From contig CP154954.1 in the NCBI GenBank assembly GCA_039621445.1, positions 46,231,847 through 46,295,846 of the forward strand: a DNA stretch of 64,000 bases. Reading direction: 5' to 3'. Source of the stretch: Euglena gracilis. Lineage: Eukaryota. Shown one piece after another: positions 1,420 through 57,200 of the stretch (its first letter is position 1; the number at the start of each line of letters is the position of its first letter). The notes beneath the pieces were generated by a model. The model saw only the letters and a list, made by a program, of their open reading frames with translations, was not told the origin of the DNA and did no database searches. The position numbers and the translations under genes were made by a program.

Positions 1420-1483
1420 CTCCCCAGGGCTGTACAGAACAACCTGGTGTCAATCCCCCCACACGCGCGCGCTCAAACGCACG

Positions 1484-1526
<43 letters not shown>

Positions 1527-1533
1527 ACACACC

Positions 1534-1573
<40 letters not shown>

Positions 1574-1670
1574 ACACCACACCACACGCACACACACCAC
1601 GCGCACACATAAACCACACACACACACACCCACCCAGCCAACACACACACATTCACGCACACACGCACAC

Positions 1671-1723
<53 letters not shown>

Positions 1724-4700
1724 ACACACACACACACATGCATGCGCACGCCACCCATAGCATTTCTGGGATTCCCGCTCAGCCCTGATCCCGCCCTCCG
1801 CCTCCTGCCGCTGCCGCTCCTCCAGCCGCCGCTGCCGCAGCAGCTGGTCCCGCTCCTCAATGTCCCACCGGCCCCGCCGCCGAAGGTCGATGTACCACTT
1901 CTCCGCCCTCTTCCGCAGCCGCCGCTGCCGCGTCTTGCCTTGGGGAGGCTGCTGGGCTGTGCGGGGACCCTCAGCACGGCTGGAGGGGATGGGGGTGGGG
2001 GGACGGGGGTCGACCCAGACGGTCAGGCTCACCGTTCAGCCGGGGGGGGGGTAGACGGCCGACTCATATGATGTGGGGGACCATGCCTGCCTGGGCCGCC
2101 CCTGTTGCTGTGGGTGGGGTTGGGGCTTCCTTGGGGAGGGCGGACGCAGCAGCCTCGGTCTCGTCCTGAAAGCCGGGGGGCAATGGCGTCTTGTCCGGCT
2201 TCTCGATGTGGGCAGAGGCACGCTCCGAACCCCCCTGAGGCACCGGAGCCCCAGTTCTCGTTGGACACCAGTGGCCATCCACAGCGTCAAAAACTGGCAG
2301 GTCATCATGCGCATAGAATTATTTTCCAAGCGGCTTCAGGCCACTACGCGTCTTCAGTGCTTTGTTGTCCCCAAAGGGAACGAAAGGGACTTTGTCAAAA
2401 GACGCCCCAAACATCCAGCGATAGCCACAACAGACACATGAGTAAGACATATTGCACGACACAAAAAAAAAGCAGGAATTGTACACTGCATACCTACATT
2501 TCATTAACAAATACACTGCAGAGCTTTGCCTCTGGATTCCATCGACGGCAACAAAGAGCCACCAAAACAAAATGATTAATGACAGTGGAATGCTGACTCC
2601 CAGCTGACGTGTGCCAAACTATCCCCCCCTCTATGTTGACTCTATGTTGACAGAGAGTAATGGTTTGAATACCAACGAGTCCCTCTGGAAAGAGTATTCT
2701 CTGAGTTATTGCAACTGGCAATGTATATTTCTATGATTTGGGGAACTAAAGGGGCAACATAAATGGAAATGTGACTCAAAAGCGTGGACACCAAGGAAAT
2801 TTGTGTTGTTTCCCTTAAATCTCGACACAAAGCCTTGTTTGACCAGGATAAAATGTTTTCACAAACAATTTTGCGTCAGCAATCAGAGGGAAACTTTATT
2901 TCTATCATTGACCCCCAACCAGGGGTTTTTCAAGACCGGGGGGGAGGGGGGTCACTCACCCCCTTGGGGGGCCCCCGGGGGGGGGACCCGGGGGACACAC
3001 TAACTTTCCCCCGAAAATGGTCAAAAATTGTGAAAAATGCTAAAAACAGCACCTTTTCAAAAAAATTTGGCTCCTTTGACGCCGAAAAGTATGGCCCACT
3101 CTCTTAAACGGCCGGGAATGCACTTTTCTTGTTGAGTCACAAAATTCTGGCAGTTTTAGTGAAAATGCGCATCCGTGCATTTCGGAAGCGGAGTGCGCAG
3201 GTGCGCATTCTGAAGGGTTGTGTGTCTCTTCCAGACTAGGTGTGAACACCTCAAAAATGAGCTGTTTGGATTTAACACGACCACAGGGACCACCCCCTGG
3301 TATACTGTTTCAACTGCGTATCACGCTGTTTACCACTGCTTTCCGACGATTGCGGAACAGTGCGTGGCTGGACATACACTCGACACACTCCGCACGACAT
3401 GCGGAACACGACGCAAGCCAACCTGGACCTGGGTGTGCCACCTTGTGTTCACCGATGTGTGCTGATGGCTCCCAGGGACAGGGCCTGGCGAACCCGGGAT
3501 GAGCATGGGAAGGAACTCCTTGCAGCCAGAGAGACACTGTCCTCCCAAGGTCAAAACAATTGGGGTGTCACTGAGTGCCAAGGCCGAAGAATGCGTACCT
3601 GCGCATTTTTTGGAAACCTCACAGAATGCGCAGGTACGCATTTTGGAATGGACACAGGCTGTGGGAAGGCGGAATGCGCACACGCGCATTGATGTTGAAG
3701 GACACACTGGGTATGGCCTGTTGTTTGCCTACCTTGAATCCGAGTTCTGCACCGCTGTGATGTGGTTTCGGGCTTGTGGAACATGGGTGTGTGAGGGGCA
3801 ATTGAACCAGGAGAATCACCCTGGGCAACAATGTCGCTGTACCAGACCACACCCTGGAACACAACACTTGCAGCGGCGTGGAAAACCCTGGGCCTACGCT
3901 GCTCTCATGAACGTGTGGAGCACGTCACAACACACGTGCAACCGTCCCCCACCCGGCGGAGGTGATGGGCCGGTTGATGCCAGCGTTGTCCGACCCCACG
4001 CCCCAGAGCGTGCATGGCAGCACACAACCAATGGCCGCACTGAACAACCTTACGTTGGGCTGCGGTACGAGGTGCAAGAAGCACTGTGCCCCACAATTAG
4101 GGTCAACGCAGGGGGTTGTGTCTGGTTCCACACACAGTGCTCACGGGGTTGGCACCTCGAGAGCGAAACACGCCTATCACCACCTTCGGCATCATTCCCA
4201 AAAAACGGTCTGTAAACACAGAATTAATTCACAATCCAAATGGACTCAAAGAAGCGAACATTATTGGTCAGTCCTTGCTCCAAAATTTATCCAGGCCCTT
4301 GAGATTGTGAGACAGGCACAAGCACATCAGAACAAAAACTTGCCGATAAACCCAGTAATTTTTTTCGTTCTGCTTTTTCCGTGCATTCCATTGTGTCGTA
4401 CATACATCTCTTTAAGGACCCCGGGGGGGGGGGTTGCTGGGCTAGGGCTAGAAATTTGGGCTAGCTAGAAATTTGGGCTGGCTAGCCCGCCCCCCCCCCG
4501 GGGGGGGGCTGGACCCCGGCTGGACCCGAACCGGGGCGAGCTGGACTGAAATCGGAAAAATGCCCAAAAATGACCTGCAAAACACAGTTTTGAAAAAATG
4601 ATGCATCTGAAACCCCCCAAAAATGCCCCAAACGCCCCCCAAACCCCATTTTTGGCCACTTTTGAACACATTTTTTCAAAAATTTTCGGCGCTTCGCGCC

Positions 4701-7700
4701 GAAAAATTTTGGGCTGGACCCCCAAAAAAGGGGCTGGCTAGCTGGGCTAGCAGCACCCCCCCCAGGGGGGGGGGGTGCTGCTGCGGCTGGGCTGGGCCCA
4801 AATCGGGGCTGGCTGCAGCAGCCCCCCCCCGGGGGGGGGGTTCGCAAAACCTTAGAGAGATGTATGGTGTCGTACCAAGGGAAAACGGATGAGAAGGGAC
4901 TTTGGTGCCCGAGGAAATTCCTCAGTGACGGGCACCCTAATTCTCAACTGCGGTCAGCAGTCTTTCATGGCATGAGTAAAAAGCCAGTGAATGCGCACAT
5001 GCGCAAAAAAGCGTCCTGTGCCTTTCTGTAAATTACAGCCACACCGCCGAATATTTGCACTCCCAGGTGGGCATGCCACCACCCACGCCAACTCCCCCCG
5101 CCTGGCCTGGGTTTGAAACCACACGGCTGAGGTGTAGCTCCCTGTGAGGATCGAATGGTGTCCGAGGTCGAGGCAGCCCTGGAGCGAAACACAGCAGGGG
5201 AGGATCCCCACCTGTTGTCTCGTTGGCAACAAACGTCACCCACCACACAGAACCCTCTTTGATCATGTACTCAGAGTCGACGCTCCAGCACTGCAAACTA
5301 CACAACCCCTGGCCGCTGTGAAGACCAAGGAAAGCACATATGCACACACCTTCGCCACACACTCCATCCGCAATGGCTGCAGTCAAACATGGCACATCGG
5401 GGTGAATGCGCACATGCGCATTCCGTTCTAGTGTCACCCCTTAAAGCACCCTGGTAGGAGGTTGCCACACAGGGCGATGCCCAACAACTCAGCACACAAG
5501 GTGGAGGCACAGCCAGGGAGACGTACACCCTGCTCTGGCGTCATCCACCTGTGCAATGAGATGCCTCTGAAATCGTCAACAAAAAAGCCAGCAGTGCACC
5601 ATGGGGGTTGCCCTGCCACAATGCTGTGCTGGCACTGGGTTCAGGAGAGCGAGACACAGCTCCCCACAACATAGAGAGTGAGCACCTGCGCACTCCCCCT
5701 CACGAAATGCGCAGGTGCCCACTCTTGTGGTTGCCCAGCACTGCTCCCCTCCTGCTCTCCTGCAGATAGAATCACAGCCAGCAAGCGAAGGAATGGCCTC
5801 AAGAGTGCGCACGTGCGCATTCTTGTGCCTGATGCAACCTCGGAGAGGAGCCATTTTACATCGTTTGTGAGGGCTGTTCTGGAGAATGTAATCTGTGGCA
5901 GAAAGGGTTGAAGCGAGGCTCCGCTCCGTAGCTTTCAAAACCAGTGACACACAGGAAAGGCGTGCAAAGCCAGCCCCCTCCCCTCCATACCCAGCACCCA
6001 TCCCAAACGTCAGACCCAAGCACAAGTGGTCCCTCATGGTGATGTGACGTAGTGCCTATGAAAACGCACATGGGGAGCGCACGGCGTGCGCCACTGGAGG
6101 GATGCTGTGCCTGCATGTGTCACAGAGGGGTGCAGTGCACCGTGTGAAATGGCAAACAGCAGGTAGCCTGAGGAGGGTGACGAGCCCTCCCCAACGCACA
6201 TCTGGTGTGTATTTAAACACACCCACCCCATCACTCTCTGAATGCAGAGTACATGCACACAACGAACATTCACCATCGCCCCCTCGTGCCCTGCTTCCAG
6301 CACAGAACCTCCCCTCCACTCTAACTGTAGAGACCACGGTACCCCCCACCACCCCCGGGAGCCATAATAACTGTCCAAAACTTCAGGAAAAGGCCGAGAC
6401 GGGGAGGGGGGTGAATGCATTCACTCGGCACCACAAAACAGGGGGGACAGCCACAGGTACAACGCCTTCACCTGACGAGGGTTTGTCCTCGTGAAACAGC
6501 GTTTCGCGTCGCACTTACTTCGGCAGACGGGGGTTTTCCCCCGGTCAACGGAGGTGCTAAACCGTCATTTTCAAAACGAGGAAAAAACCCAGGGATCGAA
6601 GGTAGTGGTCCGTATTGCGTCCAGTATTGGTACCAGGGGTTTCAACTGACGGGTGCGCCGCCCCGTCAAGTGAAGGCGACACACTCGGTCACAAAAGAAT
6701 GCGCAGGTGCGCAAAAAACCACCAAAAATGAAAAGTGCATTTCCGCCGTCTAAGACTCTCCCCTGGGGGGACCCTCCGGGGGGGGCTCGGCCAGATCCAC
6801 ACAACCTACCCTCCCCGGGTCCAGGACTAAAAAATCCCCTGCCCCCAACCCATAAAATGCAATCCCCCCCTTCTGTTGAACCCTGGTTGGAGCAAGGAGT
6901 TGGCGCTTGTCCTACACTTGGACCGCACAGCACAGCAGAGCCACAACACACACACACACACACACACACACACCCCGGGTGTGGCGTGGCTCTGGCCGTG
7001 GGCAAAACCCAGGCGGTGGTACCAGTGGAACGGGCGCTTCATCTTCTTCGTGTTCTGGTCGGTCTCCCACGCCGGCGGCCGGGGCGGGGGCTGCACGGCA
7101 TGCGGGGGCAGCCCCTTGATGGGGTGGGTCGGGTACAGCACCCAGTGCCCGCAGCGCCGCACAAGGCCACGTCCGGTGAGCGAGCCCCCGATGAAACTAT
7201 TTTTTCAGGCCGCAAAAAAAGAATTATGTTTGCCAATTTGCAAAAAATAAATTTGTTTGCAAATTCGCCCCCAAAAAGGATGCATCATCACCGACCATCA
7301 TTGACCTCCTGTCCCCTGGTGGGGCTGAGGCTGTCGCTGGACAGGGCATTTCCTTGCAAAGACGCCTCCAAGGGGTGCCCTGAAAAAATGGCTGATAAGC
7401 AGACAGAGCTTTGGAGGGCAACAAACAGAAGTCATCAATCCAAACTGCTAATTCCAGCCGGATTTGGACAAGTCAGCGAGTACAGAGGTAGGAGAGAGAC
7501 TCCTACAAAGACAGGTCAGTGGGTAGAGAGAGACCCACTGACCTGTCCAGGAACAGGAGGAGGAAAATTTCCCGGGTGGGTCCGGGTCAGAGGTTTTTGT
7601 TTTTGACAATCGACATTTTTCACCCGGTGACAAAAAAAACTGGGAAAGCAAAATGTTCACAAATTTGTAACCTGAAGCCTGAAAAAAATGTTTGGAATTT

Positions 7701-10700
7701 TGTTAACCTGGGAATTTGCCGTTTTCAAAAAGAAAGAAAATTCGTAATTATTTTTAAAAAAAACCTTGAGGAACAAGACAGTGGGTATAAGGGCAGAAGA
7801 CAGATGAATACACGTGAATACACGTTTCAAATACAGAGGGTAGAGGACAATTTCCGGGGGGGGGGGGGGAGGGCGATTATTAATAAAACTGCACTTGCAT
7901 CTGAACATGTATTTTTTTCCTGTGACAAGGAGAAATTTTAAGAACAAAACATCACAACTGAAAAAAAAAAAGGGCAACAAAAGGCAAAAAAAGATGAATT
8001 TCTCATACCAAATGCACATCAGCAGAATGTTTCTGAATTCCATTTTCTTCTTCATTGTTTGATATTTTGTCCACCTCATCCTGGTTCAAACCCCCTGCTC
8101 CACCCACAACATCCCAGCAGAGGTTTATCACCGCAACAGCTGAACAGCCGTCGGGGAGCGCTGGGCTCGACACTGGGGTCTTCCGATCGAGGACGGTCTT
8201 TGGCAGTCACCCACTGTCGGCTGGTCAAAGACAAAATGCTCACAACCTGGCCAGAACCAATCCACCAAAGTGAACCTTTTGCAAATTCTTTTCTGCTTGC
8301 CTGCGGTTGCAGGGAAGGGGGTCTTCCTGGTGTTCATGGTGCGAGAATCTCGCACAATTCATTCGCACTGTCTCGTTTGGAAATGAGTTTACAGAAAAAT
8401 AAATTGGTGCGTGTGATCTCCTTTGATTGTTCCCCTTGCACCTGGAACTCGCTGGAAAATGTCACCTGACTGGTTGCCAATGCCAAAGGCCCTGAAAACT
8501 TCCTATGTCTTGGCCAGGAAGTCGCAAAATATTATTACTTATAATATTATATTACTGTTGGTAGGTTGGTAGGCAGATAGGTGGGTGGGTGGGTGGATGG
8601 GTGGGTAGGTGGGTGGGTAGGTAGGCAGGTAGGTAGGTGGGCTGTTAGGTAGGTAGCCTTCAAACCCCTAACCCCAAGGGCTGAAATTTTCGTTTGCTTT
8701 GTGGAGACAACTTTTCCCATGCCTTTTGGTACTCCGCATCACGGAGGATGGGTCGGAGACGGCTGAAAATTTAGGTGTGTTTTCGAACAACTCCTGGCGG
8801 GGTGTGTGGGCAAGCCACCATATTAAGGATCTCTCCAATCCAGAGTCCAAGAATCCACGCAAACCCAGTGAATTCACTGATGCAACTTCCCTGAACCCCG
8901 TCAGGGAAAGTGTATTCACCTCAGCAACACTCACCAACAACTGGCCTCTTTTGAAGTTGGCCTCCCCCTGTTCACCTGCAAGCTAAAATGGTGGAAACTT
9001 TTCTTTCGGGTGGATTAAATCAAAGAAGACTGCTTTTTAAGACCCTGAGGGGTCCCCCACCCACCCAGCCCAGTGCAGGACCCCAGGAGGGACTCTCAAA
9101 GTTGGGCATCCCCCCCCCAAAATTCTGGCGCTTTGCGGCAGAACCACAACAAGGTATCTGGCCTGGGACCCAGGCATCTGCACGGGGGGGGGGGGTCTTG
9201 CGAGTTAAAAAGAAGCTGGGGTGTGTCTAGTATCAGCAACCTTGTGCCTGCTGATCCGGGGGGGGGGGGGCTGTTGCAAAGAGTTTTCTTTCAGTCATCA
9301 GATTGGGGGGGGGTGTTGGACAAAATTTTCATGTCCTCTGATTGGGCGGGGGAATCGTTGGACAAGGCATTTTTCAAAGACCAAAAGATGAAGAAGCAGC
9401 CAAAATGATCCGACCAGGGTGGGGATATGTTCACTGGACATGGAGGGTGTCAAATATTCAAGTATTCACTCTTAACTGACGCACCTTTGGTGAGGAGACC
9501 AATTTTCAAACAGAGGGAGACTGGTGACGATTTCTGGGATGGCTAGAATGAAATTGGACATGCGGTGGTAGCCCAAGAAGCGGAGGAATTTCTTCAAAGC
9601 GGGGCAAGCCTCCACAAGACTTCCACAATGGATGAAAGAAGGTTGGTGCAGAAACAATTTAAATAATGAGGTTCCTTTAGAAACTTCCAGGAAATGTAAC
9701 CCTTGTGAATTCCTTTTCCTAATCTGAGGTGTCGTTGTGACCATGCAATTGCTTAACGACCCCCGGGGGGGAGGGGAGTCACTCCACTTTTTTAAAAACC
9801 AGTCAGTCACTCATTTTCAAAAAACCAACCAGTCACTACCCCCCCATACATCTCTCTAAGGACCCCGGGGGGGGGTTGCTGGGCTAGGGCTAGAAATTTG
9901 GGCTGGCTAAAAATTTGGGCTGGCTACCCCCCCCCCCCCCCCCGGGGGGGGGGGGGGGCTGGACCCCGGCTGGACCCGAACCGGGGCGAGCTGGACTGAA
10001 ATCGGAAAAATGCCCAAAAATGACCTGCAGAACACAGTTTTGAAAAAATGATGCATCTGAAACCCCCCAAAAATGCCCCAAACGCCCCCCAAACCCCATT
10101 TTTGGCCACTTTTGAACACAGTTTTTCAAAAAATTTCGGCGCTTTGCGCCGAAAAATTTTGGGCTGGACCCCCAAAAAAGGGGCTGGCTAGCTGGGCTAG
10201 CAGCACCCCCCCCGGGGGGGGGTGCTGCTGCGGCTGGGCTGGGCCCAAATCGGGGCTGGCTGCAGCTGCCCCCCCCGGGGGGGGGGTTCGCAAAACCTTA
10301 GAGGGATGTATGACCCCCCCGGGGGGGGGGGGTCGGCCACTCAGAAAAACGGCCACTTTCCAGTCACTTTAGGCCATTTTAGGCCCCAAAAAATTTCCCG
10401 GCGCCTTTGGCGCCGGGGTCACTCAAGCCACCTTTGCCCACTCCTGGCCGACCCCGGAGGGGTCCGGGCCAAAAACCAGTCAGTCAGACTGAAAAAACCA
10501 GTCAACCACCCCCCGGGGGGGGGGGGGTCGGTCAGTGCTTAAGCAATTGCCTGGTTGTGACAGCTGTGGTGTTGTGCCCCTTTGCAGGGGGGGGGGGAAG
10601 TTGCACATCGGGAGGTCGAAAATTGCAGTGCAAAAAAGATTGCACAAAATTGCACAAAATTGCACAAAATTGCACAAAATTGCACATACCAGAAAAGCCA

Positions 10701-13700
10701 TACCAGAAATCAGAAAAGCTGCATATTCTGCCAATTTACCCTGTCGGTTCGCCCAAAAAGTTGCAACACAATCAGCCGTGGCGATATGCCATGGCAAGAC
10801 TTACGCCATTCATCCTGAACTTGTTCATCATCCAGCGGAAGACACAACAATTCATACTTAGAAATTACCAAGGCACAAAATACGAACCTGTTTGTAGAAT
10901 GCCTATTGCTCCTTTGCCAATTGGCCGATTGGGTTTGGAAACTGAGTAAACCAACAATAAACAGCCTTTGAACGGAAATTTTCAATTTTCAAATTTCCAC
11001 TACGCACATCAGTTTCCCAGCAAAAAAACTACCCCTGCTACCCATATATTGCAAAAACTGGCTCCTACACTAGTCAAGTGTGGGGGGGGGGGCAGGAGCC
11101 AGTTTTTGCAATACTTCCAGAAAAAAAAAACGGTAAGTTCTCAATTGCATCAAAAACTGACATTTTCCAAAACAAAATGTCCTGGGCCATGTGCAATTAA
11201 TTGCACAAAATTGCAAAAAATTGCACATTTCGGGGAAAATGTGCAATTGAAAATTGCACAAAATTGCAAAAATTGCACGGTGCAATTTTGCCCCCCCTCT
11301 GCCCTTTGTCAGGTTGAGATTGACTGCAATAGGATGCCAAATGTGCGTTCAGTGGGCAAAATTTTTGACCTCGTGGGGCAACATTCCATCCAGGAATAAA
11401 CTCTATGTGCCAAAATCACATGCAAAAGGAAATGCAATTATAAAACCATATATTACAATCAGATGGAAAAACTGTGACCCAGCAATGTAATGAAAAGCCC
11501 AACACTGTGACAAAGAACGACAGCCTTAAACTGTTGGCACATTTTGGTGTACGTTAATTTTTATCTGGGGCTAAAACCTCCTTTACTTATAACCAACCAC
11601 CTCCTGACCCCCCTTGCTCCAACCAGCTAAAAGACGACCTTCGACCCCCACCCTTGGTGAAGAAAAAATAATATAAAGGTGTCCCAGAAAGTTTTTCACA
11701 AAGGTTTCTTTTTACCAAAGCATCATGTCGTTTTTGACAAATTTTGTCAAAAAATTTTGTAGGTGGTATTTTGGGTCATGTTTTGGGATTGGATTTTGAC
11801 CAACAACTCCTTGACCCCCCCCCACAGACTACCCTCCCCCCCCCCCTTCGGCCGACCAACCAAGCCAAATCACGCTTAAAAGTAGGGCTGGGGCTTACGT
11901 TCCGCTTCTGGCCGTTTGCATTTTTCTTTGGACCCCACCCCCTTGCTGCTTCGCTGCTGCATTTCCAATTCTTTCTCTGGTGAGGCTCTCTGATGAGGCC
12001 ACTGTGCACTGTGCAATGGCCTTATCGACTCACATTCCCTAATGTTGGGTCCCCCCAAAAAAATCCCACCAGAAGAAATCACGGACTACAAGCCGAGGCA
12101 AATACATCTCCTTGGCAAATTTTTCCAACATGACAGCCATACAGCCAAAAATGCCAACCACGTTGGTGTGACAATTCAGTGGGGGTTATCTGACATCATT
12201 TTAGACCAAACCTTATCAAAATTAAACCACACCATAATCCCAACTTTGAGCTGGTATTTTTTGGACCAACAAAAGGGTATAAGGTAAAATTTCCAGTGTG
12301 GTGTGCAAGTTCCTAACCCCCTCAAAAGAAAATAGAACACTAGGATAGAAATAAGACCCGGATCAACTGCAGGGGGACTCTTATTTTTGGAGGGGTCTTT
12401 GACCCTTTTCCTTGACCGACCCAGGCTAGAAAACATCATTTTTCAGGTTGTAAAAAAACACTAAGCTTTTTTTCTTTTGGCACTTCATGCCATGTGTAAA
12501 TTGGTGTAAATTGCCAGTTACCATCTTCTTTTTGCACATCAAAAATACGAAAATCTTTGAAAATGCACCATTTCCCGTCTGAGGTTCTTGGTAATTTCTT
12601 CAGGTAAAAGATTTGCCGTCCCCGGCGCTTTGCGCCGTCAGGGGAGGTCTTATTTGGGGGGTCATTTCATTTTTGAATTTTTGCTTGATTGGCCCAGGGG
12701 GTCTTATTTTGGGGGGGGTTATTTGGAGAGGGGTTGGTGCCATGTCAATGCTTGGTTGGGATTGTCAAAACCAGGCAACCGGTACAGCATGTACATCCTG
12801 AGGCCCATTTGATTGATCTGGAGATACCTGAGAATGAGTGGATATCAATGACACCAATTCCACCTCAGGTGCACGTGGGTAAAAGAAGCCCCCCAAAAGA
12901 GCCTGAAAGATCAACACACAGGAAAGAAAAAACTCCAGCAGCAGGAAATCCCCTGTGGACAACGATGGGCAACCTCCATCCTGCAACCGGGGGGGGGGGG
13001 GGGTTGTTGGTCGGGGTTCTGACCAAAAAGGTGTCCTCCAACTGGGGGTCAGCTGTTAAACAAGGGTACATTTTCAGGCCAAATCATGTAGGAAGCCATC
13101 AGGTTCCCTGGTACTGACGTATCGGGTTGTAGAGGTAGGTATTCTTTTTGCGGGTCCAGGAAACTTTCAGGGACCCCATACCAGGCAACCTGCCATTCTG
13201 TGTACTTGATCTTTGACTCTTAAAACTCATGGGATGTGCCAAAAATGCAACTTGGGGGGCACATGTGGCGACGAGATCGAAATTGGGGTTGGCTACAGCG
13301 GCCCCCTCCCTGGGATGAGGGTCTGCAAAAACTCATAACCTCCTCCCCGATGGAAGCGTGGGGCTGCTACAAGCGCAGGGTCCAAATAACAGCACACCGT
13401 TGCCAAAGGCAACGGTCCACTGCAAGTGCACCTCCATCCTGATGGGATTTCTAAAAAACATCAACAAAAATCGTGCAGGTTTTTCCAAAAAGATCCCCCC
13501 CGTAGGCGGTGGTCTACCTGCTCTAAGCGGGCACCCGTGTTTCTGTTGGGGGGTTTAGGGATGGATGTATGACACACACACACACACACAGAATACACAG
13601 AGAGAGAGAGGGGGGGGAGGGAGAGATGGGCGGGACACACCGGTGCAGGAGGTCGCAGATGAAGATGAACTCCGCCTTGTGCATGTGTCGCCACAAGACG

Positions 13701-27415: not shown

Positions 27416-27470
<55 letters not shown>

Positions 27471-37269: not shown

Positions 37270-37314
37270 TAAGCGGTTGCCGTCCCAGCACACAGGAAAG
37301 CCGGCCCCCTGGGC

Positions 37315-41529: not shown

Positions 41530-41556
41530 GCACACACACACACACACGCACGCACG

Positions 41557-41622
<66 letters not shown>
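41530..41622. repeat. (CA)n microsatellite
   Basis: Direct reading. Confidence 0.97.
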
Positions 41623-41624
<2 letters not shown>

Positions 41625-41689
41625 GCAACATGAGACAGAAGGGCAGGCACCGTGTATCCAAAAATGGCCCAGGCCGTTCTGCAGCAGAT

Positions 41690-41925
41690 GGCACTTTGCT
41701 CGAAACCCCGTTGCTGCTCCGGCTCCTGCGCCTTCCGCTGCCACGGGTCCTCCGCTGTCGCCTCCGCCCGCGCCGCCGTCGGCGGCCCCACCTCCTCCTC
41801 CTCCTCCGCCTCCTCCGCCTCCTCCTCCTCCCCGGCGTCCCGCCGGCCCAGCTGCTGGAGCTCCCGGAACTGCGCCTCCGCCTTCTCCAGCAGCCGGCGC
41901 CGGCGCACCTTGCCCCCGGGAGGGC
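41690..41925 (-). CDS. Unit A exon: [36 protein letters not shown]... (3' edge approx)
   Basis: Paralog at 1791-1950 (GKTRQRRLRKRAEKWYIDLRRRGRWD). Confidence 0.85.
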
Positions 41926-44900: not shown

Positions 44901-45244
44901 CACCCACTAGATCGGAGGCATATATATATATATATACATGCATATATATATATATATATATATATACTATATATATAGACATATATATATATATATATAT
45001 TATATATACTTACATATATATCCATATACCATACATATATATACATACATCCTATATACATACATATATATAGCATCCTACATAGACATACATACATACA
45101 TACATACCTACATACATACATACATACATACATACATACATACATACATACATACATACATACATACATACATACATACATACATACATACATACATACA
45201 TACATACATACATACATACATACATACATACATACATACATACA

Positions 45245-45275
<31 letters not shown>

Positions 45276-48200
45276 CTCTACAATGACGATGCCCAATTCA
45301 ACATTGAAAAGAAATACATGATGAAAATGAGCAAAATGCTGACATGAAAAACATAGGACATTGTCAAAGACAGGAACCTGTCAGAATAAAATTTCTTTCT
45401 TTCCTCATAAAAACATACTTTCGAGTGAAGTGAAACAGGGTCAGAAGAGCGACAAAAACATATGGGCTGATACACATTACTGCTAAACCCAAAAGCTTTC
45501 ACACACATCGTGCCAACAATTGGCATGAACTCACCAAAATTGCCAAAAGAAATGCACCAAATGGCCAAAACTTTAGTGCAATGTTTTGCCATAATATGCA
45601 AATGTTTCAGCCACATTTTTTTATAACCGTGAACAGGTGCAGTTGGTCATCAGGGATTAGTGCTCATCCGTTGTTGTTGGGGGGGGGGGGGGGGCGGCCC
45701 TAATACGCAGTTCCTTGCAATTGTCATAGTTGCAAAAAAGCCTGTGCTGACCTCAGAAATGCCAAAGAAAAGGAAATGTCACAGAAAATGACAAAGACAG
45801 CCAGAAGCAGCCAGAAGCAGCCAGGAGCAGCCAAAAGAAGCAACAGCCAGAACTAGCCAAATACAGGCCGAAAAAAAATGGGCAAAAAGAGTCACACCTA
45901 AAATGACCAAAAGTGCCCAAAAAACTTGCCAAAATCACCCAAAAAGCAGCCAGAAGCAGCCAGAAGCAGCCAGGAGCAGCCAAAAGAAGCAACAGCCAGA
46001 ACTAGCCAAATACAGGCCGAAAAAAAAAATGGGCAAAAAGAGTCAGCCCTAAAATGACCAAAAGTGGCCGAAAACTTGCCAAAATCACCCAAAAAGCGCC
46101 AGAAGCAGCCAAGGCACCAAATCGCAAGAAGCAGCCAAAACTGGCCAGAAGTAGCCTAAAGTGGCCAAAATAACCTAAAGGCAAAAAAATCAACTTTGGC
46201 TTATCCGTAGTTATCTGCAGCTATCCGTGTTTGGGGTTTGGAGCTTGTCTGTTGTTATCTGTCATTATCCATAGTTATGATACACACCAATCCCACTGGA
46301 GGTCCATTTTGCAATAAGAATGACACTGCAAAAGAGTTTTTTGTTCCTTATCATTGCAACAAATGCTGACCCCCTGTCCTCCCAATGAAATTGCTTTACC
46401 CTCTGTTCTCCCTGATGCTCCTCTGCGAGCTTTTCTCCCACCCTTCTTGCACCTACTGACCTGTCTCCTACCTGTTTTTTGTTGTTGTGAATTCCCACAT
46501 TTCTGTCGCGAAATGCACATTTCCTAAATGATGCCAATTCCCTCCCTCTGACCCAGAACCCCCACAGGAAACTGTTTCCTACCTCTCCTCTGTGCGAAAA
46601 TTGCGCTGTGGAATGCAGGGCGGCACAACGTGTGCCGCTCTGCATTCCGCAAAGATTTTTTTGGATATTTTTATTTTTGGGATTGATCAGCTTGCATAGC
46701 AAAGGTGACGAACTGGAATGAACAAAAAAGCTGCACAGGACTTTTGCAGCACGTTGACACCAAAGGAACAGACCTTTGCAACACGTCGGCCAAGAAGAAG
46801 AACTCTTCTTTGTATGCTGGCCGCCAGAGATGAGCTGCGTGCCGGACTGAATGGGAAGGGGCGGGGCAAGGCCTGTTAACTGGTGGGTGTCCCTCTACCT
46901 CCAAAAACAATCTCCACGTTGTCCCTTTCCCCGGAAAGGGGTTGCGATGCAGAATAATCCTCAAAAGCAGATGCTGTTCACCGCCAGGCAAACGAGAAAC
47001 GTTCTAAAGTTTGGGAACGAAAATCTTTGCTCAGAACGAGAAGAAGCCTACGGTATTTCTGGAGATTCAAGGCAAGAAAGAAACCCTCAAATGGGCTGGT
47101 TGGGAAAGCTGCTGGTTGACCGCCTCGATGATGTTTGCAGGTGGAAAGAAAACACACCTGGATAAAAAAGCAACAAAATAACTTTATGGGGAAAGGAGGA
47201 ATGGAATGCGCTTAGAATTCCTCGGCCAGGATTTTGAAAAAGAATTCCCCAGGCAAAAAGTACTGGCAAAGAAAAATCGAGGGCGCCTGCTTGGGAGAGA
47301 TGAGCTCCCAAGCTTTTTTATTGGCTCGATTGCCAAAAAGCATAAAGGACTTAAGAAATTACATTAAAAACTTCCTTTGATTCTGCAGACCCCAATATAA
47401 TCACATGGCAAGGGGCAAGGATCACCGGATTACACAGGCGGGCATCCATGTGTGCCACACAGCACAGGTGGGATGATGGCAGCCTCGATGCTGTGATCGA
47501 AAGCCTGCACAAATCAGGGGAATTTTGTTGCTGTTTGGTTGTCCGTTGCGGAATGCTTTCCACATTTTTCATTTGTTGACTTTTGCTTCTCCCCCTCAAC
47601 CCCCCAACAAATCCTGCAGCCCCTCTGCATGTGTTGGGGGGGGGGGCACCGCCATTCATTCAGCCGCGGGCCAGGCCAGGGGTCGGGGGCCCGGGCGGCA
47701 TCGGCACGTTCTCCCACTGCGGGGCGAGGGGCAGCAGCGTCTCATACCGCGGGGGGGCCGACTCCTCCTCCTCGCTCCCCACGTCCTCCTCCTCCGCGTG
47801 GTCCTCCTGCCAAACCTTCACCCGGCGGCGGCGACCCCCTGATGTGCGCCGCCCACCCCACCCCAATCTCCAGGGTAGCCACGGCTGCGTGCACTGGCCC
47901 GGCCCTGTGCAGTGCACAGGCCCAACGACCTCATGTCAACCCGAAATGTCACCCTCCCGCCACATGATTGGAGGTCAGCCTGCAGGTTTAAGGGAACTTT
48001 TTCTTTATTCGAAGGAAAAAGCAAAATTGATTCAAAACAACTATTCCCATACATAAACCAAGATTGTACCAACAAAATCGCATCTGACTGGGGGGCGTTG
48101 GGCAAGCCTCGTCGCTGGACAAGGGGGAACACTGATGATAAGGACAGATAAACAATTGCAAAATAATTGCCAAAAAAACATTAAACGTTTAGAGTACGTC

Positions 48201-51200
48201 TGCGAGAGGATTCATAATTCTCAAAAATTTGGCAAATATTAGAATTTGGTAATATCTCGCCAGGGATGTACGCAGGGAAAAATTCTTTTGGTTTCCCTGG
48301 ACTACATTTTAGGTTTTGACCCTGTTCGAGCTGTGGAACGACCATTTGGTCAAGAAACATGGACCACCCTGGCCATCCGGGGCTATGGCCCAAATCAGCT
48401 CGAATGAAATTATTATTTTCCGGAAGGCCACATTGAAACGTCTGCGTCCAGGAGTCAACCCAACAAGCACCCCAGGCTGGGTCGGGGAGCAGCCGGAGGC
48501 AGCCCGGCAAGCTCTTCGACTTCCCCTTCCTCTTCTCCTTCCACTCCGTCCTGCGATGAATTGGAGGGCGTTGGAGAGTCGATGGCCAGCGACCACTCCA
48601 GGGGCAGGCGTGGTGCAAAGTCCCACAATTGCCGAGATAGGACACACACAGGCTGCACAAGCGGAGCCTCAGCATTGCATTGAAAGAAAGAAGACAACAA
48701 AAAAAAAGAATGAAAAAAAATGAAAATGGCTGTGCAGATGAAAAGAACAGGGCCAGCAGGTACATCAAAACCACCCAACCTGCCCACCGAACCAGAATGC
48801 CACCGCGGGCCAGCATGCCCCAAGCACACAACGGTTGCCCACGAGCTCCACAACCCCATCACGCCTGGTCCGGGGGGCCGGCGCCGCCTCGCTCACCTCC
48901 TCCCCCTCGCCGCCCACCCCCTCCCCCTCCTCCGTTTCCTCCGCCGCCGATGGCTGGGCCGCCGCCTCTGCGGGCAGCGGCAGGGATGGCACCGCCCCCG
49001 GCAGGGCAGCCCTCCTGCCCCCCCCCCCCGTTCCTGTGGCAATGGGAGGGGACATGGTGGGGCGTCGCAAGAACGGGGCCAGAGCGGACCGTGTTTTTTT
49101 TTGGCGTATTTTACCCACTTTTGCCACGTTACCTTTTTTGGACACTATGTTGGCGCATTTTGCTTCACTTCTTTAAATTTTTTGGCCGCTTTTAACAGCT
49201 TTCTTTGGCCTTCTTTGACAACTTTTGCCTGCTTTTGGATTTTTGGTCACTTTTTGGCCACTTTTGATTGCCTGTGGCCATTTCTGGCCAATTTTGGTCA
49301 CTTTTGGCCACTTTTGGCCAGTTTTGGTCCACCACAGGCGACCCGTTTTTTGGCCACTTTTGCACTTTAAGGCCAGGCCACTTTGGTCCACTTGGGACAT
49401 AATCGGTTGAAAAGAGGCATAATCGGCCCTGGTCCCTGATTGGAACCCCACCTAGGTCCTGAAAATCATGGTCGGCCCTGGTTGGGGGGGGGGGGGGGGC
49501 TCAATCCATCCAGTCACCCCTGAGGGGTATCCAGATCAAAAAGAAGCCAGCCAGGAGCACCGTTCAGGTCCCATCAAGCCCATCAACAGCTCAGCCCACC
49601 CCCACTGACACGGTTGCCTGGCAGCCGCCCAGCAGGAGCGCTGGCCTGACCGCCGGCCGCAGGCGCCCCGCCGCCGCCGGATGGACCTCCCGAAGCAGGC
49701 GGAGGGACGGCAGGATGGTGCACGACGACCGGCGGGACCCCTTGAGGCGGGCGAGGTCCGGCATGCCGAGCAGCACGTCCCGCCACCCGTACCCGCGCTT
49801 CGTCCCCATGAAGAACTTCAGCAGCTTGACCCCGCGCCTGCCAGCGCCTCTGGCCCGGACGGCTAAAATCATTGAATATTCCAACAATTATATTTTTAAT
49901 GTCAGAAACACTGATGCATCGGGAACATTTTTTTTGAGATTTTGAGATTGTGGGGAAAATGCTGGAAGAAGGAATACAAAAAAAACATCTCCTCCTCCTC
50001 TTTCTCCTCCTCCTCCTCCTCCTCCTCCTCCTCCTCCTCCTCCCTCTTCTTCCTTTTCGATCTTCTTCCATTCCCAGTTGGAGTGATTGGGTCAATTGAC
50101 GGACAACTCTTGCAAACAGAGCAGTGATTGAGCTCTCGCCACTCTGCAACAGCATCAAGCGTGGCACCATTTCTTCCAATTCAGCGCTCCACGCTGCAAC
50201 ACTAGTTGTCAGTCCGGAGGCGGCCGATGTACAGCCCGGCGTAGACGTCGAACTGCGAGAGAGGGACCCCCTCCGGGTAGTGCATGACGCAGTCCCGCAC
50301 GATGTCGCGCAGCTCAAGGAAGCCGACCTTGATACCCGCCTTACGGAAGGTCTGTTGGGCGCGGTGGCCGACCCGGATGACAACCTCCTTCCGGTTCACC
50401 GCCCAGTCCGGCACTGGGGGGATGCCGCACCGCAGCAGGAGAGGGCAGCCGTGAGCGCTTGCCGTGGCACAAAGAAATAAAAATAAAGCACAATGTGTGT
50501 GAGGGTTACAAACTTTGTTCACCTGCGGCAAATCTTGAAACTTCTTTGTTGTGTACCCTTCATCCTTCGTCTGAGGGAGTAGACTGGGAATCTTCGGGGA
50601 GGGGGGAGTGATTGCACAAGGAGAAATAACTGGCAGACTCATTTAATTTGGCAAGGAATCGTTTATTCTTCGTCTGGAAGGTCATTGCAGTGGGTGCAGT
50701 GGAGAAAATGGAAAATTTGAAGGAAAAATGAAAACACAGAAGCACCCAAGGATTGAACAATAAACCCCCCTCGGGGTCTAACTTCGCCAACCGAGTTAAT
50801 ACCCCCCCCCAATTTTCGGGCCAACGACAAGAAAATATGATATTTACCTACATTTTCCGGGCGAAATCCAGGTCGGAAAATGTAGGTAAATATCATAATT
50901 TCTGATGTCAAATTACGGGGGGGGAATCAATTTTTCTGGATCATCTGGCCTCCAAAAAGGCCTTATTTCACGAGAAAATACAATAAAAGACCCAAAGGGG
51001 GGCCTTGGGGTGCCATTCCATGAGACTTTGAAGATTTTCGAAATTTTGGGGAGCTGTCACCCTCGGGACGGGTCTTGAGGTCAAAAAATAATACCCTGGG
51101 GGCAGGGTTCGATATAAGGACAGGGGGGGGGGGGGGTGGTCCGGACCCCCCCTGCGGGCCAGGAGGGGGGGGGGGGGGGCGGGGACACCCCCCCCCACCT

Positions 51201-54200
51201 AAACAGGTGCGCGGTCAGGGTGGCCGAATTTTCGGCCCGGCGCGAAGCGCCGGGCCGAAAATTTTTGACCCCCCAAAACGACCAAAAGTGCCATTTTGGG
51301 CACTTTTTGGGCAAAAATGTGCCAAAAATGCAAAAAATTTTCGGCGCAAAGCGCCGGAGGAAAAAATTGACCCTTTTGGGGGGGGGTTAATTTTTGCCCC
51401 CGAGGGTCGGTCCGGACCCCCCTTGCAGGTGGGGGGGGGGGGGGGGGCCCGGACCCCCCCCTGCGGGCCAGGAGGGGAGGGGGGGTGGGGGGGGGACACC
51501 CCCCCCCACCTAAACCATGTACGCCCTCCTTATATCGAACCCTGCCTGGGGGGTATTATTTAGGAGGGGGGTTGCTCTTATTTGGCAAATTCGACCCAAA
51601 AATGGGTTGAACCTATGTGAACAACATCAAAATACATGGCAGGCGCAATTCTTTAGAAACAGGCAATTTGATATTCCCTTCCATTTCATTTGGAACGTGG
51701 CCATGTAAAATTTGCGCAAAAAATAGGTCCAACTCTCAAGAAACACATTTTTCCCATCACGGCGGTCAGTGAGGAAATCGGGGGGTGGGGGATATTATAT
51801 AGGCGGCTGAAGTCGGATCCAAGAGGGAAAATTATTTGGGATTGTTGGGGGAGGAGGAAAATAAACTGGAAGGGGTTTTATTTTTGGGGGGGTTAAATAG
51901 CAGCCCATTCGAGGGTCCCAGGAGGATCTGAAATGGGAGTCCCACTTGTGCAGACCCTTCGTGCGGGTGTATGGATTCGTCGCGTTTCACCACAAACATA
52001 GCACCACAATGGCGAAGGGGTGCCCCCTACTGTCCCTTCAACTGTTTCGAATTGCAAAGTCCCTTGTCTTCTGGATGATGGGCTGATCTTCTTCATCAAT
52101 TTTTTTCAGAAGGCCAGTAGGATTACGGTTGGGATTCACATTCTGGTTTTGGACATTTGAAGGCTAAATTTAGGCCCTTTCTACCCCAATTATTTTTCTA
52201 ATATTAAGCCTAATTTTGGTACAAAACACCAAACACTTCCTCCTTTAACCGTAAACCTGGTCAGAAACCAAAATGAATTCCAGCTGAAGCTCGAACAACA
52301 TCAAACACACTCAGCACACACTGCATGCCCGAGAAATCCTGGGAAGGGGGGTCCACCCCCCCCCGGCCATCCACCGGGGCACGGGGCGGCACCGCCGGGA
52401 TGTCCATGCCCTCCAGCCTCTCGAAGATGTCCGCGTTGAAGAAGCTCGGCCCCTCGAACAGCTCCGTGTCCGACAGCTCGAAGTCCCGCAGCAGCTCCGC
52501 CGGGATGGGCAGCCGGGGCGGCGGCAGGTGCTCCGGGGCGACCGGCGAGGGCGGCGCGGCATCTCAAAAAGGCTGCGGTGGGCAGCGTTTGGGGTCCCGG
52601 GGGATGGGGCGGCGGGGGGGGGGGGGGGCAGGGAGTGGGGCATACTGGAGAGGCAGGAACGCCTGCAGGTGACAGGGGGATGGGAACGGGAACTGCAAGG
52701 AAGAATGGGGGTCGGGAGGAGATGGGTGCTACATCCCCCCCTTTGTCCTTGAAAAGCCAAAATACGGGGAAAGTGCGGTTGACACGGGGGTTGATGGACC
52801 GGGGGGGGGGGGGGGGGGCCCTCGCAGACGTTTTACTGATTTATTGACCCAAATGGGCGGGGAGCGGTTGTGTTTCTTTTGGTCATGGCGTTTGGACGTT
52901 CTGCACAATTTTGGGAACGTCTGCTTTTCCAAATGTCACCATAAAAGTTTTGTTCCACAGCTTTCGACGCCTGGCATCTTCCTGCTCTTTCCTTGTGTGG
53001 GCAAAGATTTGGGTGCCCGCGCATTCGGGGGGACGATGCCACTCCGATGGGGACAAAAACCCAGTTGAGCGGCAGCAGCGATGACTGCTTGTCCTTGATG
53101 ATGATCAGGTCGGGCATGGAGAAGAGCAGGCCCCAGAAGGACTACTCCCTGAGGTGGGTCCTCTGACCCCGGTGTCGGGTGGCCTTTGCACTGCAAAATT
53201 GGGGTTAGATGCCCCCACAGCTTCAATGTCTGCCTCCCTCTGCTAAGCCCCTTTCGTGGACTAAAAAAGGATGAAACTCGTGCCATGAGAACGCTCCTCT
53301 TTCTTCTTGGGTGTCCAAACTCGCATTTAAGCTTTTTTCCTTTGTCGGTGTGCACAAATGCACACATCGACAATTTTTACGAAAGTGACAACAGCTGGCT
53401 CTCGAAACCCAAACTATGTGATCATGATGTGCTGTAGTGCCCCAGGACGCAGAGATGGAAACAGGGACTTTGACAGTTGGGGCCCACCGTTGGGGCCTAA
53501 GAGCAGGTGTCACCACAGCATACGGGGTACATAACACACAGGACGTCAGTCTGGAACCTTCGAACACAACTGCCTCATCAAAGTGGGATGTTAATACCCC
53601 CTCCCTAATAGAAGCGCGGGCGCGCTTCTATTTGGACCCTGCCTGTGCGATTTTTTTGCTGATCTCCTTTAATGCTGATCTCCATCAAAATGGGGGTGCG
53701 CTTGTAGTGGACCGCCGCCTTCAACAGCAGAGGGTGCGCTGTTATTTAGACCCTGCGCTTGCAGCGGCCCCACGCTTCTATTCGGGGGGGGGGGGCGGAT
53801 TTAGTGGAACGATTTAGGACAGATGAGATTAAGTCTGAAACGATGCTCTGAACTTTCAACTTTGCAAAAATTTGGTTTGAAAAACCTCAAGTTCGAGATA
53901 TTTTTGTAGAATTTAATGACAGCTAAAAGATCAGCCTTCTAGGGCCTGAAACTGGGCATTGGCAGTTGGGTTGGTGCGCGCAATTGTGCAAATGAACCAT
54001 TCTAATGGCTGATGTGCGCATTGACACCCACCCACCGAAACTTTGTTTCATTATTCTGAAGCCTCAATAACGGGGGATTCTGAGACAAGAGAAGGGTGGA
54101 AACAGGAGGAGAGCAACATATGGAGCGTTGTGTTCAAATTGGAGGTGTTGTGAGGAGTGTTTGAGAGGGTCAAATGAAGTGTGTCAGGGAACGACATTAT

Positions 54201-57200
54201 ATGGCCCCCCTAAACACCAAGGTTTTGATCGCGCCTCATTTTTTGGACAAAAATACTGGGGGTGGACCTTTAAACTAAATTTTAATGAAAAAACCTGGAA
54301 AGCCCTTTTGATGTTTCAAAAGCTAAAAATGATTTTTCAAACCACAGCACCACAGGAATGCAAGGGAGGACACCATAATTTCATTGCATTCATTTTCCAG
54401 CATCAAGCACGGTGAAATGGGTGGCTCTTGGTTGACTTTGAAATGGTAGGTGTGCGCAAATGCGCACATCGACCATCAGCGCATTTGTGCACACTGATAT
54501 CATCCTTGTTGTTGTATGGGTGCCACAGGTATTAAACACCAGTGGGGTAGAATGGAGACTCAACTGGTTCCGTGTGGTTATCCTCCTGTGTTCTGTGTCC
54601 CCCTCATCAACCACCACTGACAGAGTTCTCTCACAGCCCATTTCCACCCGTTTTCTTTTTTGCATGAGAAATTCCATTCCTTTTGTAGCCAACTTCAAAA
54701 ACCTCCACAACGTGCGGCAGGGCTTCAGAAAGCAAGCAAAGGGTGGACCTGTCACCCCACCTCCAGAACACCACTGGGAGCGCTGTCAGTTGTCACGCAG
54801 GAAATGCAAATACCAGGTTTTTCGTGTATTTTTGGTCAATTTCTGACTTCGGGAAAGTCAGTCCCAGGATTTCACAGTTGGGCAACGTGCTTACGCTTTT
54901 TGTTGTCGGTGTGTGTATGTTTGCACACGATACATTTTTTTAAAAAAAAATTGGAAGGTTGGGGTTCAGGTTTGTGAACTGTTTGTGTCCCCCCCCTTCC
55001 CCGTGCCCCTTCCCCCCCCCGGACCCTCCCTCCCCCCACTCCCTTCCCCTGTGCCCCCTCCCCCAATAACTTTGGTGTGGACAAAGTTGGCGGACATGGC
55101 ATAAATTGCAAACGGGTAAACGGTGTTGGCAAAATCAGGAGGGCATGGTGTTTTTGTGGTTAGCGTGGGGTGTGGGGGGGAGTGGAGGTTTCGCAGCCCG
55201 GCGAATCAAAATTTGTTTCGGCGGTGGCGAAATAAGGGTTTCCACACGCACCCCCCCTTCCCACCACCCCAGATTCCCGCCCCACATTCCACCCCACCGC
55301 ACGGAAAAATCAAACCGGCATGGATCTACAAAAAGGGTGTACCCCCCATCGTACCACCACCCGCACCACTGACAGGCCGCCAAAAACTAGCAAAAGATTC
55401 CTAATCAGATGACCCAATCGCGAGCACAACCACATGCCAGGAATTTCACATGGGCAGTCTCTTCACAAACCCGGTGTGGTCAATTGCACACCGTTTCACA
55501 TGAAAAGAAATTGTTGGGTTCAATGTATGAACCTGTTTGTGTCCCCCACCACCCTTCTACCCACACCCTCCCCCACCCACCCCTAAGGCACCCGCCCCCC
55601 CCACACTCCCACACGCAAACCCCACCCCCCAAACCTACCACTACCCCGCCAATTCCACCCCGTCCCAAAAACCGTCAACGTCCATCTTAGTTTTGTGTTG
55701 ATTTCGAGTGGAAGTTTTTGTTGGAATCATTTCTGTTTTCCGCCCACCTAGTTTTTTATTTCCTTTATTCTCTTTTTTTTCTCTGTTTTTTTTGTACCCA
55801 ATATTAACCCCCCCCCCCCGGGCTTTATATTCTTCGGATAACCCAAACTACTTTGTCCCAATTAGGAGCTTGGATTTTTCGTACAATGCATTTTTGATAC
55901 ATACGTTAACCAAATTTCATCAATTCTTGTGCTTTTTCTTGTAGTATGTCTGGTGATTTTTACACCTGGTGTCAATTGGATTCATGGGTGCGGGCGTGGT
56001 GGGGGGCTTATGATTTATGCAGCCGATTGGGGGGAGGTATTATCACTACCCCCTTGTCTAAGCACCACCCCCCGGTCCATTCCCGTCTTTTTAAACAGTC
56101 ATCTTCTCGGGAGGCTTATTTGTGTGAGCTTCTAAGAGAAGTTTATCGAAAATTTGGACATTCTGGGGCCTGGTTTTGTTGGTTTTTTCTGATATTGTTG
56201 ATTTTTTCATCCAAGTGCCTGAAAGTTCAACAGTGGAACCCCAAAATAAGTGAATGTGGGTGGACACATTCCAAGCCTGAATCACCTCAGCGCAGAATAG
56301 GAAATTCCCCTAATGTTGGGGGTCCGCTGTATTTCCTTGCAGGCATTGCGATGATGAAATCAGCAATGTATCACACAATCCTGAAAAGTGTGAGGAATGT
56401 CGAAATTTTCGAGAAACATTTCATGTTTCTACAAAAAAAAGGCTCCCGAGAAGGCGACCTTTGAAAAGATGGTGCTCTTGAACAAGGGTTGAAGGGAACA
56501 AGGTTCTCTTGAACAAGACTTAGACAACGGAGGGAGGATGTATGAGACCATGTTGTTCACACCGGTCAGCATGGGATCCCCTCAGGTTGGAATCCCAGCC
56601 GCTCCACCCGGTTCTTCTGCTTGCCGCCGCTGAAGCCCTGGAGGCCCTTCAGCGTGCCCCCCAGCACCCCCTCGGGCCGCGCCTTCATCTGCTCCCGGGT
56701 GTACTGCCGGGCTCAGGGCAGAGACCAGCCTGTGGCTGAGGCGATGAGTTACCCCGGACTTGGCAACACACCAGCCTTCTCCTGCCACATGGGGATCCTC
56801 ACCCCCCCCCCCGATGTGGTCCGAGACCCTGGGCGGAAGTCGTTGTAGTCCTTCCACATGAGGGCGTCCCAGCGGCTGCGGTCCACGTCCGGCGAGTAGA
56901 ACGACTTGCGGTAGTGTAGCTCCGCCAGCTTCGGGGAGGTGCTCTCGGGGCAAGTGGGGCCGTCGCTGTTACACATGGACAAGCACGACAGCCCGTGCTG
57001 ACGCACGGGCGGTATTTCACCGACACAGGGGGGATGCACGGGACCGAGCCCGATCCAACGGACCCGGTGCGAGGGCGCCACTCTCACACGTCCGCGTCAA
57101 ATCCCGGCCTACGGTGCGAATCGCGGTCGCATTCGCCCAGAACGCGGATGCGTAGGCCGTTACATCGCTTCGGTTAGTAGGTGGGTAGATAGATGACAAC

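Follow-up and report, generated by a model that had tools for sequence, protein, structure and literature searches.

The closest described counterparts of the introns treated here are the nonconventional introns of euglenids; those of Euglena gracilis were reportedly studied by Milanowski et al. in 2014 and again in 2016. We analysed a stretch of DNA of 64 kilobases (kb), called the window below, for which an original prediction had described a single gene at positions 1420-56834 with 18 such introns. We conclude that the window very probably holds two tandem, diverged copies of a nuclear gene of a Euglena-like euglenid, and that the copies are split mainly by nonconventional introns of the known kind. 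All positions are those of the window.

In E. agilis, 71.8% of 649,158 introns are nonconventional and 84.4% are given as slidable (Nomura et al., 2025, PNAS; PMC12501133). The code 5'-N3CDG-/-CH'GN5-6, followed by an exonic purine (R), is found in 61.2% of the nonconventional introns of E. agilis, and this noncanonical code was defined by knock-in mutagenesis in E. gracilis (PMC12501133). The trans-acting factors are still called unknown there, in agreement with the statement in the original prediction that the excision machinery is not established, and an origin from miniature inverted-repeat transposable elements (MITEs) is suspected (PMC12501133). In E. gracilis, 16,151 of 28,337 introns (57%) are nonconventional, with a consensus of CCAGG at +3 to +7 and CCTG at -9 to -6 and maximum lengths of 4,682 and 5,931 nucleotides (nt), and conventional introns contain C-rich tracts (Gao et al., 2024, BMC Genomics; PMC11170887). 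A review lists terminal inverted repeats, repeats resembling target-site duplications (TSDs) and new insertion sites; it also summarises that the products are circular and that the conventional introns are removed first (PMC11282704). The introns of hemistasiid diplonemids are mostly base-paired and noncanonical (PMC12621601).

Compared with the system of PMC12501133, our locus shows no difference in kind. It shares with the Euglena code the non-GT-AG borders, the CDG/CH'G register, the exonic purine, the slidable repeats and the admixture of conventional introns. The likeness to E. gracilis (PMC11170887) includes the CCAGG/CCTG termini, the C-rich tract of the conventional intron and pairing energies that, for ends of 10 nt, fall mostly between -2 and -10 kcal/mol. 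Introns of 3445 nt and, as predicted, 4790 nt lie within the E. gracilis range, which reaches 5931 nt; the introns here are longer than the E. gracilis mean of ~520 nt, a value that comes from a fragmented draft genome (PMC11170887). Because the rule and the genome-wide dominance of such introns have been published (PMC12501133, PMC11170887), the phenomenon is already known, and the original prediction is a correct rediscovery of the published code. As biology, the window adds one more locus to a class of introns of which hundreds of thousands have already been described. As a reading made from sequence alone, the prediction recovered the Euglena noncanonical code, with most junctions placed to the base.

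Two gene copies and the RNA evidence

The intervals of the original prediction can be read as genes solely on the minus strand. Searches with blastn and tblastn of 38-64 kb against 1-30 kb revealed a colinear run of short conserved pieces with 44-79% protein identity. Thus, the window contains two tandem paralogs and not the single gene that had been proposed:

Gene A, 41300-60035 (about 41.4-60.0 kb), minus strand: at least 17 exons and at least 16 introns, from RNA joints, contigs and the open frame.
Gene B, 1150-27336 (about 1.1-27.3 kb), minus strand: paralog of gene A by blastn and tblastn; the model is incomplete.

Between the two genes, blastn matches were confined to exons and a few dispersed repeats, and intron bodies were unmatched. 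Several junction contexts occur twice; for instance, aacgacttcc/GCCCAGGG at 56834 resembles aatgacttcc/GCACAGCTG at 26421 (the slash marks the junction). From a putative ATG at 60035, the spliced frame of gene A, composed of the RNA-defined exons and three predicted 3' introns, is open for 794 codons. In its 3' part the frame enters a CA microsatellite near 41.5 kb and reaches a stop at 41479 at the latest.

One could still place all 18 introns in a single gene or transcript unit, such as an internally duplicated gene. The two copies share a strand and are ~14 kb apart, and the RNA evidence covers 45300-59499, short of the stretch between them. Trans-splicing occurs in euglenozoans and polycistronic transcription is possible. 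However, gene B repeats the entire exon series of gene A, from the exon at 27336 through the C-terminal exons, the frame of copy A ends as just described, and the gene B homologue of the second coding exon of gene A lies at 27280-27336, which points to two complete units. We consider a single unit very improbable and proceed with two tandem genes.

RNA evidence was taken from the raw RNA-seq runs X21 and X24 (two studies, one comprising X21-X23 and the other X24) and from the contig sets X15 and X16, on positions 45300-59499. None of the indexed runs that contain the stretch was listed as RNA; the raw RNA-seq runs bear the same species label. This stretch contains 6 of the 18 introns of the original prediction. 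Joint positions were compared allowing the 0-3 nt of ambiguity that result from flanking direct repeats. The joints given here are the 11 best supported; 162 further joints were found besides these. All 11 occurred in X21, in reads beginning at 3-19 distinct places, 8 occurred also in X24, and all 11 recurred in the contigs of X15 and X16. Loose ends of contigs gave two further introns, for a total of 13 RNA-supported introns. The small contig sets carried 11-14% of the words, which is the share expected of exons alone, and RNA depth in the interiors of long introns was near zero. The first mates of X24 lay nearly all on the plus strand, which fits minus-strand RNA and a stranded library. No back-joint of intron length was present among the RNA joints given. 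The introns of gene A, with one short exon, are as follows:

58849-59892, minus strand: nonconventional, no stem in the canonical register; the loose end of an X15 contig at 58848 equals 59893-59922 exactly.
57631-58775, minus strand: nonconventional, off code, the spacer 3' of the pairing being longer; X21, X24, X15 and X16.
56947-57585, minus strand: nonconventional, off code; RNA joint in four of four runs.
56709-56834, minus strand: fits the code, CAGGGT/GCCCTG, spacer 5; RNA joint in four runs.
53144-56588, minus strand: 3445 nt, fits the code, CTGAGG/CCTCAG; RNA joint in four runs.
52547-53049, minus strand: nonconventional, fits the code, CGG/CCG; RNA joint in four runs.
50416-52396, minus strand: 8-pair in-register stem starting G...C, contains the repeat 51102-51545; X21, X15 and X16.
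49840-50225, minus strand: 6-pair stem CGCCTC/GAGGCG, loose rule only; RNA joint in four runs.
48995-49649, minus strand: slidable by +2, fits the code when slid; RNA joint in four runs.
48599-48869, minus strand: fits the code, 8-pair stem; RNA joint in X21, X15 and X16.
47824-48498, minus strand: fits the code; RNA joint in X21, X15 and X16.
46837-47672, minus strand: nonconventional, not slidable, CCG/CGG and extended helix; RNA joint in four runs.
44066-46773, minus strand: conventional GT-AG, contains an ACAT microsatellite (45109-45274); the contig loose end at 46772 equals 44034-44063.
43349-43915, minus strand: predicted, fits the code; the frame stays open.
42434-43173, minus strand: predicted from sequence and frame, fits the code.
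42379-42433, minus strand: predicted exon of 55 nt; in frame, DNA alignment, weak similarity to 2153-2207 of gene B.
41926-42378, minus strand: predicted, fits the code with spacer 6; a one-base slide gives GC-AG (hybrid type).

Five of the six introns that the original prediction had placed in the RNA-covered stretch were exact (56709-56834, 53144-56588, 52547-53049, 49840-50225 and 46837-47672). Intron 53144-56588, of 3445 nt, is the longest that RNA verified. The sixth interval, 48993-49683, was misplaced: RNA skips 48995-49649, which is 36 nt shorter and keeps the frame. The stem of the misplaced interval was 7, longer than the stem of 4 in the true intron. Seven RNA-supported introns of gene A were absent from the original prediction (58849-59892, 57631-58775, 56947-57585, 50416-52396, 48599-48869, 47824-48498 and 44066-46773).

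We also asked how the junctions would look as artefacts, produced by reverse transcriptase switching templates at direct repeats or by assembly errors. Twelve of the 13 RNA-supported junctions are slidable by 1-4 nt along short flanking direct repeats, and the intron ends form hairpins, a setting that permits jumps of the enzyme. Against this stand the recurrence of the 11 joints at 3-19 read starts in X21, of 8 of them in X24 from another study, and of all of them in X15 and X16; the near-zero depth within long introns; the single frame that stays open for 794 codons in the spliced product; and exon boundaries that match the limits of paralog conservation. An artefactual origin is scarcely credible, and we treat the junctions as spliced.

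Fifteen of the 16 introns of gene A are nonconventional. Compared with the genome share, the binomial probability is 0.0016 at 57% and 0.036 at 71.8%; among tens of thousands of genes, such an excess is not remarkable.

The splicing code and pairing of intron ends

In all 18 intervals of the original prediction, read on the minus strand, the exon is followed by NNN-C, a stem of 3-8 pairs joins the intron ends, and G-N5-6 precedes a purine, as had been claimed. The stricter published code fits 13 of the 18. The borders of all 18 as placed are other than GT-AG, but 41926-42378 slides by one base to GC-AG. Among the RNA-supported introns, 12 of 13 are neither GT-AG nor GC-AG at any permitted slide, and the exception is 44066-46773. 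This intron, joined in the contig as 44064-46771, slides by 2 to AAAG/GTCTGT...CCCTCCCCCGCCCCCGGGCCGCAG/GT, a GT-AG form in which a C-rich tract precedes the AG. The known euglenid pairing of +4 to +6 with -8 to -6, which the original prediction had cited, is the register kept by the RNA-spliced introns here.

The strict code, N3-CDG...CH'G-N5-6 followed by R with D/H' pairing, fits 6 of the 11 RNA joints, compared with a rate of 0.22% in 200,000 length-matched random pairs (binomial P ~6e-14). This share is close to that of E. agilis, 61.2% (PMC12501133), so that an incomplete fit is expected. The looser rule of the original prediction fits 9 of the 13 RNA-supported introns and 1.0% by chance. 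Both the CTG-CAG and the CGG-CCG variants of the code are present. Junction repeats of 7 nt flank the gene B introns 20724-21383 and 2208-6997.

Pairing of the intron ends was confirmed by folding. In a first set of 12 RNA-supported introns, the duplex energy of the first with the last 25 nt was -21.1 kcal/mol for cognate ends and -15.5 kcal/mol for non-cognate ends, and none of 5000 permutations reached the observed mean. The same comparison for the 12 introns known from the original prediction alone gave -25.1 against -18.6 kcal/mol (1 of 5000 permutations), values biased towards pairing because these introns had been chosen to fit the rule. The duplex energy of the conventional intron of gene A was no better than that of non-cognate ends.

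The rule is real, yet it is insufficient alone to fix the junctions: in a range of 40 nt to either side, every true junction has 14-95 in-frame alternatives that comply with it as well. For a putative gene B intron inside 20176-20723, the strict code by itself allows 19 candidate junction pairs. Because of the many alternatives near true junctions, gene models in these genomes cannot do without RNA evidence. The success rate of the original prediction owes much to exon conservation and to the reading frame.

We strongly infer that the host is a euglenid. The assignment relies on the register and the motif, because hemistasiid diplonemids also have base-paired noncanonical introns. Their introns resemble those of our locus in the lack of GT-AG, in the pairing of GC-rich ends and in their majority share (PMC12621601), and with these features the host might instead be one of these diplonemids, or some other euglenozoan that has such introns. 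We regard this as quite unlikely. The register N3-CDG/CH'G-N5-6 with a following purine, which was defined genetically in Euglena, is not described in the passages of PMC12621601 compared here, and it is the register of 6 of the 11 RNA joints here. Additionally, the conventional intron has a C-rich tract as reported for E. gracilis (PMC11170887), and the stretch is present in runs of 17 studies, with deep RNA-seq runs under an identical species label besides, which suits a widely cultured organism. A euglenid host remains the preferred assignment.

Comparison of the copies, their product and a model

Gene B repeats most intron sites of gene A. Its introns, with one short exon, are as follows:

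23956-26421, minus strand: predicted, fits the code; position homologous to 56709-56834 of gene A.
22226-23844, minus strand: predicted; position homologous to 53144-56588.
21479-22131, minus strand: predicted; position homologous to 52547-53049.
20724-21383, minus strand: predicted, specific to gene B; 7-nt direct repeat GGGGGCC, ends GAGGCG/CGCCTC.
16862-20175, minus strand: predicted; position homologous to 49840-50225.
13704-14717, minus strand: predicted; homologous to 46837-47672, same codon phase.
12828-13640, minus strand: conventional GT-AG, read from the sequence; homologous to 44066-46773.
2208-6997, minus strand: predicted, 4790 nt, 7-nt slide; homologous to the predicted 42434-43173.
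2153-2207, minus strand: predicted exon of 55 nt, from alignment to 42379-42433.
1951-2152, minus strand: predicted; homologous to the predicted 41926-42378.
1420-1790, minus strand: predicted; consists largely of CA microsatellite and has an 8-pair stem (CAGGGCTG/CAGCCCTG); gene A shows no counterpart.

For five of the nine gene B introns in the original prediction, gene A has an RNA-verified intron at the homologous position; the flanking residues agree, and the reading frame is open across these five. Altogether, seven pairs of introns lie at homologous positions, and the helix and the spacer of 5-6 nt are kept in them. Lengths at shared sites differ widely between gene A and gene B (126 versus 2466, 386 versus 3314 and 740 versus 4790 nt). 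Over the seven pairs, the stems contain 9 two-sided changes at 42 stem positions, a covariation count that is merely suggestive because the coordinates of gene B were selected by the rule. The paralog pair is a natural experiment in which seven shared sites keep the terminal helix while the bodies have fully diverged. The two 55-nt exons, which share 55% protein identity over 20 amino acids (tblastn E 0.21), are weakly predicted from frame and conservation.

The encoded product looks like a multi-LOTUS/OST-HTH-type protein, to judge from its translated sequence. By eye, the spliced product contains three LOTUS/OST-HTH-like stretches, for example one containing KLLKFF, and each is split by an intron. 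Pfam was run on the translations of nine single exons, so that each putative LOTUS domain was split, and gave one sub-threshold match to OST-HTH (PF12872; E 0.017, 15.4 bits, where the gathering score is 23.8). A search for longer homologous proteins with exon 43174-43347 returned nothing, and a protein atlas search with two exons gave no usable match. With a profile of gene A and gene B exons, HMMER returned two matches among 1.84 billion representatives (E ~1e-6, 10-11 stretches each), which we set aside as low-complexity proline-rich sequences.

We propose a model for the expression of these genes. In the pre-mRNA, bases from about +4 would pair with bases that end 5-6 nt before the 3' end of the intron, and the core of this pairing would typically consist of C-D-G with C-H'-G. 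The resulting hairpin may juxtapose the exon ends, the downstream exon usually beginning with a purine. Excision would be carried out by a machinery distinct from U1-dependent splicing, and the intron would be released as a circle, both as in the literature. What our own data show are the RNA junctions, the lack of GT-AG borders and the pairing of cognate ends. One conventional GT-AG intron per copy would be spliced alongside the nonconventional ones. The intron sites are mostly common to the paralogs; the intron interiors have diverged past recognition and have been enlarged by microsatellites and dispersed repeats, and the terminal helices have been retained, in part through two-sided changes.

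Several observations weigh against this account. RNA support is limited to 45300-59499, and 12 of the 18 introns of the original prediction, all nine of its gene B introns and both 55-nt exons lie outside. As the gene B coordinates were picked to fit the rule, the covariation count is biased towards it. Three 5' introns of gene A (58849-59892, 57631-58775 and 56947-57585; 3 of the 12 RNA-supported nonconventional introns) are off the code of PMC12501133; in two of them the canonical register has no helix, and pairing is out of register or weak, and the duplex energies of 57631-58775 and 56947-57585 are no better than those of non-cognate pairs. The putative LOTUS assignment consists of one sub-threshold Pfam match and a sequence read by eye. 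Lastly, a euglenid origin is not directly shown by the protein searches, which returned no taxon-bearing homologue.

The three off-code 5' introns of gene A are efficiently spliced, and they hint at a second recognition mode for nonconventional introns. Separately, the tandem pair may record recent gain of nonconventional introns. We put forward both ideas tentatively, and each is rather doubtful. The candidates for gain are introns of gene B that are absent from gene A: 20724-21383, which is the clearest, 1420-1790, and one of ~3 kb near 9.6-12.7 kb. Where gene B has 20724-21383 (residues GLFRG/PTFFPAHLF), exon 52397-52546 of gene A is continuous. If gain has occurred, the two genes would present the filled and the empty sites of a MITE-like element that is possibly still mobile. 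The terminal inverted repeats, the TSD-like repeats at the junctions and the paralog-specific 20724-21383 are alike to MITE-derived introns or introners (PMC11282704), and a paralog-specific intron with TSD-like flanks agrees with the hypothesis of a MITE origin. In contrast to such elements, no second copy of the body of 20724-21383 was found in the 64-kb window, and a Pfam search of 10 intronic open reading frames found no transposase; the mobility is putative.

Exon 43916-44063 of gene A is apparently split in gene B by the extra intron of ~3 kb, with halves at 12749-12829 and ~9526-9600 (within the stretches 12749-12838 and 9481-9693). A weak alignment to the first half of that exon was also seen around 9693, which may be a duplicated pseudo-exon.

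Repeats and other features of the window

The original prediction had described the introns as filled with transposons. Besides CA and ACAT microsatellites and tandem arrays of 32 nt, they contain at least three dispersed repeats, in the following copies:

Dispersed repeat 1: 25818-26228, 51102-51545 and 60765-61097.
Dispersed repeat 2: 4401-4866 and 9845-10312.
Dispersed repeat 3: 13336-13480, 24237-24403 and 53618-53793.

These few copies and the microsatellites bear out part of that description. However, none of the 10 long intronic open reading frames matched a Pfam family, transposon families included; thus, there is no evidence for autonomous transposons, and the description is weakly supported.

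Dispersed repeat 1 is ~440 nt long, with long G and C runs at its borders; each paralog carries it in an intron, and a further copy lies upstream of gene A. RNA depth over this repeat exceeds that over exons by a factor of hundreds to thousands: word depth in the X16 contigs reaches 7504, and depth in the X21 reads is 36-49 compared with 1-4 in bins that contain exons. An Rfam scan of the whole window, this repeat included, gave no matches. It probably represents a dispersed element that is transcribed and abundant.

Dispersed repeat 2, of 470 nt, lies in two different introns of gene B in copies that are 95% identical. It contains G/C homopolymer runs and an internal duplication of GGGCTAGAAATTTGGGCT, and resembles a non-autonomous element that was active in the recent past. 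Within the gene B intron 16862-20175, a 32-nt unit (GGTGTCCACAGGTGAACCACAAA...) forms two arrays in direct orientation, 17086-17255 and 18669-18839, with a distance of 1.5 kb between them; they may be subterminal repeats of an inserted element.

At exon positions including 46779, 50331, 52465 and 56863, single-base differences were seen in a share of the RNA reads that ranged from about one third to three quarters. They probably represent alleles or strain differences rather than editing.

Directly downstream of gene A, 39900-42000 has a G+C content of 65% and long spurious open reading frames on both strands. The 14-kb spacer between gene A and gene B contains a cluster of near-perfect palindromes (34820-34933, 35040-35077, 36080-36226, 36287-36382 and 36504-36625), which appear as self-inverted matches of 38-152 nt.

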